Assembly: GCA_000146045.2 (NCBI GenBank)
Contig: BK006947.3
Coordinates: 704,001-768,000 of the forward strand
Reading direction: 5' to 3'
Length of the DNA stretch: 64,000 nucleotides
From: TPA_inf: Saccharomyces
Taxonomy: Eukaryota
Part shown: piece by piece, positions 40,360 through 44,766 of the stretch
How positions within the stretch are numbered: the first letter of the stretch is position 1
Layout: every line of letters begins with the position of its first letter
Position numbers and translations under genes: made by a program
The notes under the pieces: generated by a model
What the model saw: the letters and a program-made list of their open reading frames with translations, nothing else
Databases searched by the model: none
What the model was told of the DNA's origin: nothing

Positions 40360-41343
40360 CTAACACCTTTTTTTCCTGAGCCAAATAAGCGGTGGAATTG
40401 AAACAGCTACCAAAATCATACCAAATCCAACCGCAATTGAAAGCCCCAATCTTGTGCCATAAAGAGCTGCTAATACAATCGGTGCCACCAGTTTACCAAT
40501 CCCAGAGATTGCTCCAATTGAAGGCATCAACTGGACCTTGAGTTTGGGGTCGATGTACATGGAAAAAAGGGCTGGAATGCTCGAAGCCAAAAAGTTGTAC
40601 CCTAACAATGTAATCGACATCCCAGCTGAAAAAAATATACCAGAATTTGTGGGTGGCATTGATTTATGCTTCAAGGCTTCGGATGCTCCAATCATAAAAG
40701 CTTGTCCCAGCAATGAAACAAACAATGCAAAGATGGACAGAAAAACTTGACCGCTGTACAGCGAATCTTTTTTCTTTACCTCAACGGTCTCACTTCCAGT
40801 TGTATCTGACTCTTCTAATCCGCCATCTTTGGCTCTGCCGCAGGAGCACCCGACGTTTATTAACTTTGGAGCGAAATAGCTTCCAGTCACACCAAGTATA
40901 GATGCGACCATAAACGCTATGCCTTGAAACTTGGTGTCCCAGTTAACGTGGAGCGTCAGGAATAGTGGCATAAAATAAACTACTTCGCTCATAATAAATG
41001 ACGATAGGAACATGCTCCATAGTAAAATCAAGCAGGAGATGAGTTTTTTTCTTTCGACTCTAAAAAATTGTTTCAGAGCACTGAAAAGGCTATTTTCCGA
41101 ATTTGTAACTTTAACCTCAGGATTTTCCAGAACGACAACTAATAAAAGGCATACTGCAAGAATTATGAAACTGGAGGCAAATGTCGGTGCATTGTAAGAG
41201 GCAATGCGATACCCTTTAATTTTAAAATCGCAATATCCAAAAAATATGACAATTAATTGTGCCAACGCCATGAAGATACCAGCCGCTGCTCGATAAATTG
41301 ATAGAAGCTTGAAAACGATACCCCTATCTTGTGCAATTGACAT
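40360..41343 (-). CDS. PUL3: Putative MFS-type permease, the uptake component of the pulcherrimin cluster. This is the reference-length 327-aa model from the first in-frame ATG. The frame is open for 79 more codons upstream; see the extended model in the findings.
   Basis: ATG at 41343 (MSIAQDRG...). The same frame continues upstream to 41580 with TM helices and an MFS motif-A-like GGRIICGAASASG but no ATG. Confidence 0.7.
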   Translation of the reverse strand: MSIAQDRGIVFKLLSIYRAAAGIFMALAQLIVIFFGYCDFKIKGYRIASYNAPTFASSFIILAVCLLLVVVLENPEVKVTNSENSLFSALKQFFRVERKKLISCLILLWSMFLSSFIMSEVVYFMPLFLTLHVNWDTKFQGIAFMVASILGVTGSYFAPKLINVGCSCGRAKDGGLEESDTTGSETVEVKKKDSLYSGQVFLSIFALFVSLLGQAFMIGASEALKHKSMPPTNSGIFFSAGMSITLLGYNFLASSIPALFSMYIDPKLKVQLMPSIGAISGIGKLVAPIVLAALYGTRLGLSIAVGFGMILVAVSIPPLIWLRKKRC

Positions 41344-41607
41344 GATGTAACTGAACACTATAGCACCAGAAGCAGATGCTGCACCACATATAATACGCCC
41401 ACCGAGAAGGGTGTTTAGCGACACTGCACCGCCGCATGAATACAAAAAATTACCCACAAAGGATAAAAAGTAAAGCCCCACTATTACCCATTTAATGGAC
41501 CCAAGAAAAGCAGCAATATCCCCAATAATGAATGAAACAAAAACTTGAACTGCTGCAGAAATGGCTTGAATTCTGAACAAGAATTTGTCCGGATTGGTTT
41601 CTCCGTT

Positions 41608-41792
41608 CTCTAAATTGTTAGCATACTAGTTCATTGAAATTATCTTAGATTTACATTAACACTTACTTCTTTGATGTAGTCAACCACACTTGAGAGATAT
41701 ACACAGGAGTCGAAACTGAATTGGACAGCTATCAAAATTACAGCCAAGTATTTCAAAAACATGTGTTTCTTGACACCTAAGATTTTTTTCAT
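41608..41792 (-). other. PUL3: Candidate unannotated 5' exon (41792..41667, 42 codons, MKKILGVKKHMFLKYLAVILIAVQFSFDSCVYLSSVVDYIKE) plus a 59-nt intron (41666..41608: GTAAGT...TGCTAAC...TAGAG) that joins in frame to the PUL3 N-terminal extension.
   Basis: All elements read directly on the minus strand: ATG preceded by an in-frame TAA; GAA|GTAAGT 5' splice site; TGCTAAC branch-like box 48 nt downstream; AG|AAC junction that restores the downstream frame. Confidence 0.4.
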
Positions 41793-42942
41793 TTTAATTT
41801 ATTGTACCACCGTCGAGTGAAATGGATGGATTTGTAATGCAATTGAGATACAATTAAGAAGAACGAAAGAGTACTTGACAACTAGAAAGTAATGTTAACT
41901 GATCTTTTATATGATGATTATTTATTGACGGCGATTCTTTTCCAGATTAGGAAATTTTGTTCCGCTTAGAATGGGATAGGCTTGTTTGGGCGCTATACTT
42001 CTGTATCAAAATAGTAAAATCAACTTATTTTAGTAATAGAAGAGAACAGTAGGCGTTTGGTAATTCTAATTACCTAGACTGTCCCCCATTTCCAGACAGC
42101 TGTCCCATATTTTTTTGAGATTCCGACGTCGAAGCGAAAGACTAGAAGAATAAGTAAAGTGGTCCTTTGTAAGCATAAAGACAAAGGCATGTGAGAAAAG
42201 TAAGTGTCTTCGCGATTCGCCGTTGTAAATATGTATCAGCTTTTTTTACTGCCTTTTCCTGGCGGATCACAGTAATGTATTTTTTTTTTTATATAATTCG
42301 AGCTCTACACTCAAGCATACATATATAGAATAGCTCAGTTTTAATGGGCTTTCTCGAGAACTATTCACCCAGAAGGATATCCTGAGCCTTATATTTAGAT
42401 GTAACTTAGTAAAGTGAGAGTATTATGAATAACTTTTGAAGCTAACAAAATATCAGAAATTAAACTTCATTCAAGAATGTATTTATCTAGAAACTGGTCT
42501 TTGGCAAATGGCTCCGATGGCACACATGCAATGTTCTTGGTAAAAACTAATTTATTATTAGGCCAGTACAGAATAAAAGTTGTCATAAGAAAACTTCATT
42601 ACATTTTATCTCCTCTGGCAAGTATCCAAATTCGAAAACCTCAGAAACCAGCGTTCCACCTAAAGTTTGTTTGCCCGTATGTTAAAACAGTAGCTGCCAA
42701 GTCACTTGAGTTTGAAGAATAATCTGATGCTTTTTACATAGAGGTCTATTAGGCTCTTTACTTTGTAAGCATCTCGACTTAAAAAAAAAATCTATTGTTT
42801 TTACGGGCATCGCTGAAAAACTGTGTCTGTTCTCTTTGATGCTGTCATCTAAGATTCAATTAAAGTCGACCATCAAGTTCCCTTAATAATATCCCTTGTG
42901 AGAGCTTAATCTAAAACTACAAAAGCGTTCGCAACAAGCAGT

Positions 42943-44766
42943 ATGGACAGATCTAAGGACGCTAGAAAGAGATCTATTAGTTTGGCCTGTACTGTGTGTA
43001 GGAAACGAAAGTTGAAGTGCGATGGGAACAAGCCATGTGGAAGATGTATAAGGCTAAATACACCAAAAGAATGCATTTATAATATTGATAAAAGGAAAGA
43101 CAAGAGAAAAATCAAAAACGGGTCGAAGGTTTTTTTATTCAAGAATAATACTATCGATAACGGGAATAACTCTATACTAGAGAACAAAGGACTAAATGAA
43201 GACCTTTCTTCTCATATATATGAGAAAGAAGCGCCAAAATTCGATTCAGATATTGATATATCAAGATTTGGCACAAATGATGCTGTGATTTTTAATAATG
43301 ACGGGTGGGACACTTCTCTTCCGATCGATTTTGATTTCGATGAGTTTAACACTGAGACAACAGATTTCGATGACTTTTTAAAACTATTAGGCGATAATTC
43401 ACCTTCAAAGGAACAAAAAAGTCTTTCCTATTCACCTACTGCTACAGGCTTAAGCGGTGTGGTTAAAGAAACTGAGAGCGAAGATAACGCTCCTACGAGG
43501 TCTCGGCTAATCGATGTCTTGTTTGAGAACAAGCTTCACTCCGTACCAGGAATATCAAAATGGCATCTATATGAGCTGGAATCCCAATACCCAAATTTGG
43601 AATGTACAGAAGGAAATAGTGATGAAAAGTTTTTACTTTCAACTGTATTGTGCCTGGGGTCGTTGACCATACGAAAAAGGGAACTATTGAATCATTCGAA
43701 CATAGACAATCGTCCACTTTTGCCGGAGAATAGTATTTCAAAACTGACCACTGATGCTTTTAAGTACTATAATGCTGCGAAAACGCTTGTTCCCGACTTG
43801 TTATCTCATCCCACAATCGATGGATTTTGCGGCCTCGTTCTAATGGCAAATTTCATGACGATGATGATATCCTTAGAGCACCAATTATATTTGAGTATAA
43901 ATGCTTTACAACTTGCTGTGGCTTTAAACTTGAACAACAATACAAAATGCAAGGAATTACTTGAGTCGAACAGCGACGGAATTGGTGTGATCTTGCTTTT
44001 TTGGAACATTTGGTGTTCTTCTTGCATGTTGGCAACAATTCATGGAAAAAATCCTTTTATCACTTTGGAACAAATTACAACACCTCTGCCGTGTGAAATA
44101 TCCCCCCGCAATAAAACTAATAAACTTTTGATAGATTTCATGCAAATCAGAATCAAGCTAGCCACTCTACAAAGTAAGATTTTTCAACGGCTATATACTT
44201 CCAGCACCGCAAACGAGGTACCATTCGTAAACTTAGAAAGAGAATTTGAGGAGGTTTCACTCCAGATTACCAGGTTAAAAGGCTTTCCGATATTCGAAGA
44301 ACATCTTTTTTACAGGAGCAGAGTCTTAATGTTAGAGCTATCATGTTTAAGAGCTCAAGCTTCTTTTCTATTATATCGTCCGTATCTGATCACTGGAGAA
44401 TCCTTACAAGCAGTAACCATGGCAAAATCAATAATTCACGAAATATGGAGTCAATACACTAAACAGTTTCCCGATAACGAAAAGGAAAGGCATGAACGTT
44501 TGGATTGGAATTTTTGTTATCCTTTAAGAACAGCGTCACTGACATTATGTATTTCATGTATTATACTCCTAAGGTATAAGCAGGTGGTGCAGTTCCTTAA
44601 AGGTACTGAACTATTTGAATACATTCTAGCATTGGAAATATTGCAAGATTTAGTTCAGGTACTTCCTATTGAACAAAACCTTATTGATATAATCAAATAT
44701 CCGATCAGTCCAGTACAGCTGAGTGGTGATAGCTTTGTCGAATTTTGGGGTCGCATACTTTACTAA
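42943..44766 (+). CDS. PUL4: Zn(II)2Cys6 binuclear-cluster transcription factor (607 aa), regulator of pulcherrimin-cluster genes.
   Basis: N-terminal CTVCRKRKLKCDGNKPCGRCIRLNTPKEC Zn2Cys6 motif plus a fungal TF middle-homology region. YNR063W. Confidence 0.8.
   Translation: MDRSKDARKRSISLACTVCRKRKLKCDGNKPCGRCIRLNTPKECIYNIDKRKDKRKIKNGSKVFLFKNNTIDNGNNSILENKGLNEDLSSHIYEKEAPKFDSDIDISRFGTNDAVIFNNDGWDTSLPIDFDFDEFNTETTDFDDFLKLLGDNSPSKEQKSLSYSPTATGLSGVVKETESEDNAPTRSRLIDVLFENKLHSVPGISKWHLYELESQYPNLECTEGNSDEKFLLSTVLCLGSLTIRKRELLNHSNIDNRPLLPENSISKLTTDAFKYYNAAKTLVPDLLSHPTIDGFCGLVLMANFMTMMISLEHQLYLSINALQLAVALNLNNNTKCKELLESNSDGIGVILLFWNIWCSSCMLATIHGKNPFITLEQITTPLPCEISPRNKTNKLLIDFMQIRIKLATLQSKIFQRLYTSSTANEVPFVNLEREFEEVSLQITRLKGFPIFEEHLFYRSRVLMLELSCLRAQASFLLYRPYLITGESLQAVTMAKSIIHEIWSQYTKQFPDNEKERHERLDWNFCYPLRTASLTLCISCIILLRYKQVVQFLKGTELFEYILALEILQDLVQVLPIEQNLIDIIKYPISPVQLSGDSFVEFWGRILY

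Follow-up and report, generated by a model that had tools for sequence, protein, structure and literature searches.

The PUL3-PUL4 pair of Saccharomyces cerevisiae S288C: a probable missed intron in PUL3 and a candidate Pul4 operator in its promoter

The locus examined in this study was a divergently transcribed pair of genes, PUL3 and PUL4, in a 64-kb stretch of yeast DNA (the whole stretch is referred to as the window, and positions are those of the window unless a fetched locus is named). The window was assigned to chromosome XIV of S. cerevisiae S288C because two of its open reading frames (ORFs) matched RefSeq proteins exactly; the 327-amino-acid (aa), ATG-initiated part of a minus-strand ORF was identical to NP_014460.3 (YNR062C, Pul3p, UniProt P53748), and a plus-strand ORF of 607 aa was identical over its entire length to NP_014461.3 (YNR063W, PUL4). 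The minus-strand ORF ended at 40360 and the plus-strand ORF occupied 42943-44766, as expected from a first-pass annotation of this DNA, which had described the two genes as divergently transcribed and as encoding a permease of the major facilitator superfamily (MFS) and a Zn2Cys6 regulator. The domain content agreed with that description, as Pfam placed MFS_1 in Pul3 (41 bits against a cut-off of 33.4, expect value [E] 1.5e-10) and Zn_clus (residues 15-52, E 2e-10) and Fungal_trans (residues 213-423, E 3e-9) in Pul4. The gene limits of the annotation did not hold. Its PUL3 boundary at 41580 was merely the first TTG past a stop codon and not a gene boundary, the reference start being the ATG at 41343, and its 1.36-kb intergenic region (41581-42942) included what we propose to be an intron and the first exon of PUL3, leaving a spacer of 1150 bp from ATG to ATG (41793-42942). 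The existence of the pair and its reading as a “cheater” configuration were already published in 2018. The additions made here are a correction of the PUL3 gene model, comprising an intron and 130 N-terminal residues, and a conserved candidate operator for Pul4. The features of the locus are collected in Table 1.

Table 1. Positions of the PUL3-PUL4 features, known and proposed, and of neighboring genes in the 64-kb window
Feature	Position	Strand	Description
PUL3 exon 1 (proposed)	41667-41792	-	126 nucleotides, 42 codons, MKKILGVKKHMFLKYLAVILIAVQFSFDSCVYLSSVVDYIKE; predicted to encode transmembrane helix 1
PUL3 intron (proposed)	41608-41666	-	59 nucleotides, phase 0; GTAAGT at 41666-41661, in-frame AG at 41609-41608
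Branch-site-like TGCTAAC	41617-41623	-	putative branch A at 41618; 10 nucleotides to the conserved AG, 8 nucleotides to the AG at 41611-41610
PUL3 exon 2 (proposed)	40360-41607	-	codons 43-457 and stop; contains the whole reference ORF YNR062C (40360-41343)
Reference-start ATG	41341-41343	-	codon 131 of the full protein, end of predicted helix 4
TATA-like TATAAAAG	41904-41911	-	112-119 nucleotides upstream of the exon 1 ATG; read from the sequence
36-bp dyad	41929-41964		CGGAACAAAATTTCC-TAATCT-GGAAAAGAATCGCCG (minus strand); candidate Pul4 operator of PUL3
Divergent PUL3-PUL4 promoter region	41793-42942		1150 bp, ATG to ATG
PUL4 (YNR063W)	42943-44766	+	607-aa Zn2Cys6 transcription factor; Pfam, tblastn with K. 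lactis Pul4, identity to NP_014461.3
Ferric reductase gene, FRE4-type	35951-38110	+	719 aa; Pfam Ferric_reduct, FAD_binding_8, NAD_binding_6; context only
MARVEL-domain gene	38881-39540		between the FRE4-type gene and PUL3; Pfam
Alpha/beta-hydrolase gene	45136-46008		PUL4 side; Pfam
Split sortilin/Vps10-like gene	46350-51107		PUL4 side; Pfam

To place the pair relative to the pulcherrimin (PUL) cluster of Kluyveromyces lactis, the K. lactis proteins Pul1, Pul2, Pul3 and Pul4 were searched by tblastn against the entire window. Pul4 aligned with its K. lactis counterpart over residues 1-589 of 591 at 48.7% identity (E 5e-170), and comparable values were obtained in five other species. K. lactis Pul3 aligned in two segments that corresponded to the two exons proposed below, residues 41-459 with 41610-40366 (63% identity, E 6e-172) and residues 2-41 with exon 1 (67.5% identity, E 7e-12). 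A profile search with the 457-aa model of Pul3 returned the K. lactis “MFS-type transporter PUL3” (KLLA0C19250g, 460 aa) at 63% identity and 99% query coverage. Alignment therefore supported the orthology to the K. lactis cluster on which the first-pass annotation had built (63% and 49% identity for Pul3 and Pul4), and on these matches the identity and orthology of the pair appeared almost beyond doubt.

The K. lactis locus carried PUL1 (cyclodileucine synthase; 480 aa, no Pfam family), PUL2 (a cytochrome P450 gene), PUL4 and PUL3 in a row, which upheld the four-gene Kluyveromyces cluster that the annotation had invoked. Synteny was confirmed in that PUL3 and PUL4 were adjacent in K. lactis too, and the loci differed in several respects. 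The four K. lactis genes shared one strand, in contrast to the divergent pair of S. cerevisiae; the genes flanking the K. lactis locus were unrelated to those of S. cerevisiae; and PUL1 and PUL2 adjoined the K. lactis pair, whereas neither was present in the S. cerevisiae window. The K. lactis Pul1 and Pul2 proteins had no tblastn match in the whole 64 kb (best E 0.85-3.2), in line with the claim that neither gene is nearby, and no match was obtained at the S. paradoxus, S. kudriavzevii, S. eubayanus, Lachancea or Komagataella loci. Decayed relics of PUL1 and PUL2 were ruled out by the same searches, which were negative with the K. lactis proteins in the 64 kb and at the five other loci. A complete biosynthetic cluster, with PUL1 and PUL2 adjoining PUL3 and PUL4, is thus absent from the window. 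Adjacency of PUL3 and PUL4 was found in seven species, namely that of the window, S. paradoxus, S. kudriavzevii, S. eubayanus, K. lactis, Lachancea quebecensis and Komagataella pastoris. The other Saccharomyces species, L. quebecensis and K. pastoris resembled S. cerevisiae in carrying the pair without PUL1 and PUL2 at the locus, as well as in the position of the PUL3 intron and in the promoter dyad described below, and the Komagataella pair was also divergent, as in S. cerevisiae.

The sequence upstream of the reference PUL3 start suggested a two-exon gene. On the minus strand, the ATG at 41792 was followed by 42 sense codons, a GTAAGT, a stretch with in-frame stops, a TGCTAAC, a TTTAGAG and then the long ORF. 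Joining 41667 to 41607 gave a protein of 457 aa, with a predicted junction of GACTACATCAAAGAA to AACGGAGAAACCAATCC. The two high-scoring segment pairs of K. lactis Pul3 abutted at residue 41 with the proposed intron exactly between them, and the 457-aa model was gapless at the junction against the proteins of K. lactis, K. dobzhanskii, Komagataella, Metschnikowia and Candidozyma auris. The elements of a spliceosomal intron were present in nonconsensus form, with a GT at the 5' end, a TACTAAC-like branch site and an AG that restored the frame. No other in-frame ATG occurred between the proposed intron and codon 131, where the reference model starts, and residues 43-130, which lie upstream of that start, contained many near-invariant positions in the alignment of orthologs. 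Considering these alignments together, it is highly probable that functional PUL3 is a two-exon gene encoding the spliced 457-aa protein, and the 327-aa reference model is very probably truncated, lacking the first 130 residues and missing a small intron.

The first exon was conserved in four Saccharomyces species. Compared with S. paradoxus, all 41 residues aligned by tblastn were identical, the 42 codons differed by eight synonymous changes and one nonsynonymous change without gaps, and nucleotide identity was 93% in exon 1 and 81%, with an indel, in the intron. Homologous introns of 57-59 nucleotides, differing by indels, were found in S. paradoxus, S. kudriavzevii and S. eubayanus. The Saccharomyces introns began with GTAAGT or GTAGGT, carried a CTAAC or CTAAT branch motif (TGCTAAC in S. 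cerevisiae and S. paradoxus, CACTAAC in S. kudriavzevii and TACTAAT in S. eubayanus), and had an AAG exactly 10 nucleotides past the branch A. In the three relatives of S. cerevisiae this AAG was single and aligned with the second AG of the S. cerevisiae TAGAG; at 41608-41611, S. cerevisiae reads TAGAG, S. paradoxus and S. kudriavzevii TAAAG, and S. eubayanus TGAAG.

Introns at the same position, with 9-10 nucleotides from branch to AG, were also present in L. quebecensis, K. pastoris, Metschnikowia pulcherrima and one further yeast. The K. lactis PUL3 gene (10001-11383 of the fetched K. lactis locus; 1383 nucleotides, 460 aa) had no intron, and its gapless alignment indicated that the intron was lost precisely in Kluyveromyces. 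Therefore, the intron appears to be old and to have been lost in Kluyveromyces, since it occupies the same position in distant yeasts while the K. lactis gene is intronless. In Komagataella and Metschnikowia the intron was already part of the deposited PUL3 models, whereas the deposited Saccharomyces models were truncated at the N-terminus. These were of 419 aa in S. paradoxus (6001-7260), 404 aa in S. eubayanus (6001-7215) and 334 aa in S. kudriavzevii (6001-7005; positions in the fetched loci), and exon 1 was intact upstream of each of them in the respective genome.

Several observations weighed against the spliced model or against efficient use of the intron. The S. cerevisiae signals were weak, the 5' site being GTAAGT compared with the usual GTATGT and the branch site TGCTAAC compared with TACTAAC, and an additional AG, specific to S. 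cerevisiae, preceded the conserved 3' site by two bases; splicing to it would cause a frameshift. Most yeast introns have 11-60 nucleotides between the branch and the 3' site (PMC11585973), whereas the proposed PUL3 intron has 10. The exact 457-aa protein, searched in six allele backgrounds, was not found in a collection of 15 billion proteins, and YNR062C had no entry in the part of a large intron-discovery supplement that the partial file contained. The published complementation employed K. lactis PUL3 rather than the S. cerevisiae gene model (PMC12342472). The proposed intron resembled the very short introns of S. cerevisiae in its length of 59 nucleotides and its branch-to-AG distance, and the class with less than 12 nucleotides was reported to be independent of Slu7 and Prp18 (PMC11585973). 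It differed from them by combining nonconsensus 5' and branch sites with a competing AG at 8 nucleotides, and by being unannotated. No paper mentioning a PUL3 intron was found in a literature search outside which Krause et al. 2018 and several supplements lay, and the sole paper found to contain both YNR062C and the word “intron” made no link between them.

Public databases were divided on the gene. GenBank held at least five conflicting S. cerevisiae models (327, 435, 450, 453 and 463 aa) as well as exon 1 alone as a 50-aa ORF, and none of these models equaled the 457 aa that are consistent with the orthologs. Other splice choices were considered and rejected. Splicing to the first AG (41611-41610) would shift the frame into a stop, and this AG was missing from the other three Saccharomyces species. 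The 463-aa model (AG at 41627-41626) inserts six residues, EYANNL, which all orthologs lack, places the branch site in an exon and relies on an AG that is not kept in S. kudriavzevii or S. eubayanus. The 435-aa and 450-aa models delete conserved residues. The window sequence itself differed from the 463-aa database model at residues 47, 149, 178, 280, 283 and 304.

The alignment of the spacer in four Saccharomyces species revealed one sharply conserved block, a dyad of the pattern CGGAA-N6-TTCC-N6-GGAA-N8-CCG. It preceded the PUL3 start by approximately 140-170 bp and was closely followed by the TATA-like TATAAAAG. This TATA-like sequence was conserved in the Saccharomyces alignment, and in K. 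lactis, too, it occurred downstream of the dyad. The dyad was the only match to its pattern in the 64 kb even when one mismatch was allowed, and none of 100 shuffled sequences matched. It occurred once upstream of PUL3 in each of eight yeasts (S. cerevisiae, S. paradoxus, S. kudriavzevii, S. eubayanus, K. lactis, Lachancea, K. pastoris and one further yeast), at approximately 90-170 bp from the start in seven of them and approximately 300 bp in the eighth, the K. lactis copy lying, as in S. cerevisiae, approximately 150 bp upstream of PUL3. Only a partial dyad was found in M. pulcherrima.

A half-site matrix built without the K. lactis sites was then scanned over the 21.4-kb K. lactis locus. 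Four half-sites stood out with scores of 16.4-19.4, compared with 9.3 for the next, and three of the four lay in front of PUL genes: one in the PUL3 promoter and the others 372 and 508 bp upstream of PUL1 and PUL2, respectively. This distribution suggested that the dyad is probably a cis element of the PUL regulon. Because Zn2Cys6 sites are characteristically marked by CGG and CCG triplets such as the outer pair of the dyad, a zinc-cluster protein was suggested as the binder, and Pul4 is the obvious candidate, although the case for Pul4 in particular appeared evenly balanced. Two observations spoke against this assignment: the fourth of the top K. lactis half-sites (8086-8103 of the fetched locus) fell within the PUL4 coding region, approximately 390 bp in, and the spacing of 30 nucleotides between CGG and CCG is far longer than in classical Zn2Cys6 sites.

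The dyad could instead be bound by a factor other than Pul4, such as a heat-shock-factor-like reader of nGAAn or another zinc-cluster protein. The inner TTCC-N6-GGAA palindrome does resemble sites of the GAA/TTC type, Pul4 is so far only a candidate binder, and the literature reports that Pul4 is not essential for PUL3 expression. However, the distance from GAA to TTC is 9 nucleotides, out of phase with the 5-nucleotide repeats of heat-shock elements, and a heat-shock element was rejected on this ground. The outer CGG and CCG triplets were invariant, the element accompanied the PUL3-PUL4 pair in eight species, and its half-site marked the K. lactis PUL1, PUL2 and PUL3 promoters. Binding by another factor was consequently considered unlikely, though less so than the other alternatives discussed here. 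A published protein-binding-microarray motif exists for Ynr063w, and its consensus was not found in the papers citing it; an older motif from chromatin immunoprecipitation on microarrays, TCAARTA, was weak and unrelated.

Other elements of the spacer were also noted. A conserved block at 42791-42820, approximately 125-150 bp upstream of the PUL4 ATG, read TTTTTCAGCGATGCC…AACAATAGA; its core was invariant in the four Saccharomyces species and contained no CGG dyad, and it may be an element of the PUL4 promoter. An exact direct repeat of 12 nucleotides, CTTTGTAAGCAT, occurred at 42165-42176 and 42761-42772 in partly conserved blocks and could be due to chance. No tRNA gene and no Rfam family was found in the spacer (41793-42942). 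Elsewhere in the window, a lone half-site, CGGAATTTCGATTCCAGA, was present at 11610-11627 (score 16.1), 222 bp upstream of a 446-aa minus-strand ORF (10048-11388), and was not part of a dyad.

The proximity of the ferric reductase gene raised the possibility that PUL3, PUL4 and FRE4 form one co-regulated iron island under Aft1/Aft2. Pulcherrimin is an iron chelate, and the FRE4-type gene lies 2.25 kb beyond the PUL3 stop and adjoins the pair in S. paradoxus and S. kudriavzevii as well. It did not adjoin the pair at the K. lactis, Lachancea or Komagataella loci, and an unrelated gene with a MARVEL domain intervenes in S. cerevisiae. Neither of the Aft1/Aft2 sites TGCACCC and RCACCC was found in the PUL3-PUL4 spacer, where a single bare CACCC was not conserved in S. 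paradoxus, whereas the ferric reductase ORF was preceded, at a distance of approximately 430 bp, by a TGCACCC at 35514-35520. This arrangement was consistent with iron-regulon control of the FRE4-type gene and not of PUL3 or PUL4. The dyad, conversely, had a single occurrence in the window, away from FRE4. A shared iron island is therefore improbable. The iron-acquisition theme that the first-pass annotation drew from FRE4 stood insofar as FRE4 is a real neighbor within Saccharomyces, but it was weak, the adjacency being confined to Saccharomyces and the spacer lacking an Aft1 site; it is plausible as loose biology and unsupported as a functional unit. The flanks of the K. lactis locus offered no iron theme either, as a neighboring 623-aa protein was just a generic MFS protein.

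Uptake of xenosiderophores in S. cerevisiae is carried out by the ARN/SIT permeases of the MFS together with FRE reductases under Aft1. Pul3 would resemble this system in that a non-producer imports foreign iron chelates through an MFS permease. It differs in that Pul3 gave only a weak match to MFS_1 and no relative of solved structure was found for it by sequence, and in that control of the pair, with no Aft1 site in the spacer, appears to be exerted by a pathway-specific Zn2Cys6 factor.

Returning to the gene model, the reference annotation could be right in that PUL3 is intronless and encodes a 327-aa protein of eight helices from the ATG at 41343, with the conservation upstream reflecting a promoter or 5' untranslated region. 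This is the current model in both RefSeq and UniProt (NP_014460.3, P53748), the deletion-collection allele based on it shows a phenotype, and a spliced S. cerevisiae product was not found in the databases and papers searched. A deletion phenotype is, however, equally expected under the 457-aa model. Codon 131 was Met in S288C but Thr (YITSIAQ) in every ortholog and every other S. cerevisiae strain examined, which therefore have no ATG there, and the exact 327-aa sequence was found on only two contigs. It is thus a substitution of the S288C type that provides the reference start codon. Residues 1-130 were conserved as protein, with a bias toward synonymous change, and the intron-free K. lactis gene encodes the full 460 aa.

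Structure prediction pointed in the same direction. The AlphaFold model of the 457-aa protein (predicted template-modeling score 0.80) contained 12 helices, of which helix 1 derived from exon 1 (a helix at residues 2-43, predicted local distance difference test 82-88), and residue 131 ended helix 4. Foldseek returned full-length matches to the 12-helix MFS structures of GLUT3, MFSD10, NorA and VAChT over 450-500 columns. The 12-helix MFS fold was thus present in the spliced 457-aa model and not in the 327-aa model, whose product would lack helices 1-4 of the MFS N-terminal domain. An intronless PUL3 is accordingly very improbable.

A decaying relic, in which the pair has no selected function in S. 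cerevisiae and PUL3 is drifting into a pseudogene, is the least probable alternative: the absence of PUL1 and PUL2, the nonconsensus splice signals with a frame-shifting AG two nucleotides upstream of the conserved site, the S288C substitution at a near-invariant Thr and the truncated database models of some strains (217-259 aa) would fit it, but both frames were intact without frameshift or stop, exon 1 was under purifying selection, the dyad was kept in eight yeasts, the pair was retained in non-producers from three genera, pul3 deletion has a phenotype in the S288C background, and the short database models were due to annotators missing the intron and not to mutations.

The S288C pair is very likely what remains, for transport and regulation, of the budding-yeast pulcherrimin cluster in a species without PUL1 and PUL2 at the locus, and this was the best explanation of the findings as a whole. 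According to PMC12342472, the PUL cluster and the idea of “cheater” yeasts go back to Krause et al. 2018. As PMC12342472 further reports, an S. cerevisiae pul3 deletion mutant (S288C background) was more sensitive to producers of pulcherriminic acid, Pul3 was required for both pulcherrimin import and pulcherriminic acid export, and “cheaters” were still inhibited by high producers. The cheater-like retention of a transporter and a regulator in the first-pass annotation thus matched the published account, but its description of the pair as the uptake half of the system was too narrow, because Pul3 is also needed for export of pulcherriminic acid and high producers still inhibit cheaters. Deletion of pul4 was reported to abolish pulcherrimin production and uptake (PMC12715866), and reviews describe the regulation of the PUL genes as poorly understood.

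In the mechanism suggested by these data, PUL3 would be expressed as two exons joined across the intron of Table 1, and its product, a 12-helix MFS permease, would import the iron-bound pulcherrimin of other yeasts and, according to the literature, could also export pulcherriminic acid. Pul4, a Zn2Cys6 factor reported to activate PUL3, would most likely act via the conserved 36-bp dyad upstream of the TATA box. A comparable arrangement is known in Bacillus, where the yvmC-cypX system pairs an MFS transporter for the same molecule (YvmA) with a dedicated regulator (YvnA; PMC12342472). Compared by description, the biosynthetic genes of the two systems are unrelated in sequence, and the regulator is of a bacterial class in Bacillus and a Zn2Cys6 protein in the fungi.

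Taken jointly, the propositions that PUL3 is mis-modeled with an ancient intron and a 457-aa product, that its splicing is limiting or regulated, and that the dyad is the operator of Pul4 are put forward tentatively. If they are true, a coding intron conserved in yeasts as distant as Komagataella and Saccharomyces, but lost in Kluyveromyces, has not yet been described for S. cerevisiae, and a functionally characterized gene is still modeled wrongly in the reference genome of the eukaryote with the best annotation. The weak signals and the extra AG could then make splicing a limiting or regulated step in the supply of Pul3. ORF clones, N-terminal tags and structure predictions made on the YNR062C coordinates would lack four of the 12 helices, and the truncation has also spread to the annotated genes of S. 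paradoxus, S. eubayanus and S. kudriavzevii. A correct PUL3 is needed for engineering pulcherrimin production or resistance in S. cerevisiae, and the dyad offers a concrete candidate for Pul4 control.

One further observation concerned a neighboring gene on the PUL4 side. The sortilin/Vps10-like gene consisted of two adjacent ORFs on the same strand (1116 aa and approximately 460 aa) with one in-frame TAA between them (49725-49727). Its counterpart was a single ORF in S. paradoxus (1562 aa) and S. kudriavzevii (1570 aa), and the S288C copy looks like one gene divided by a nonsense codon.

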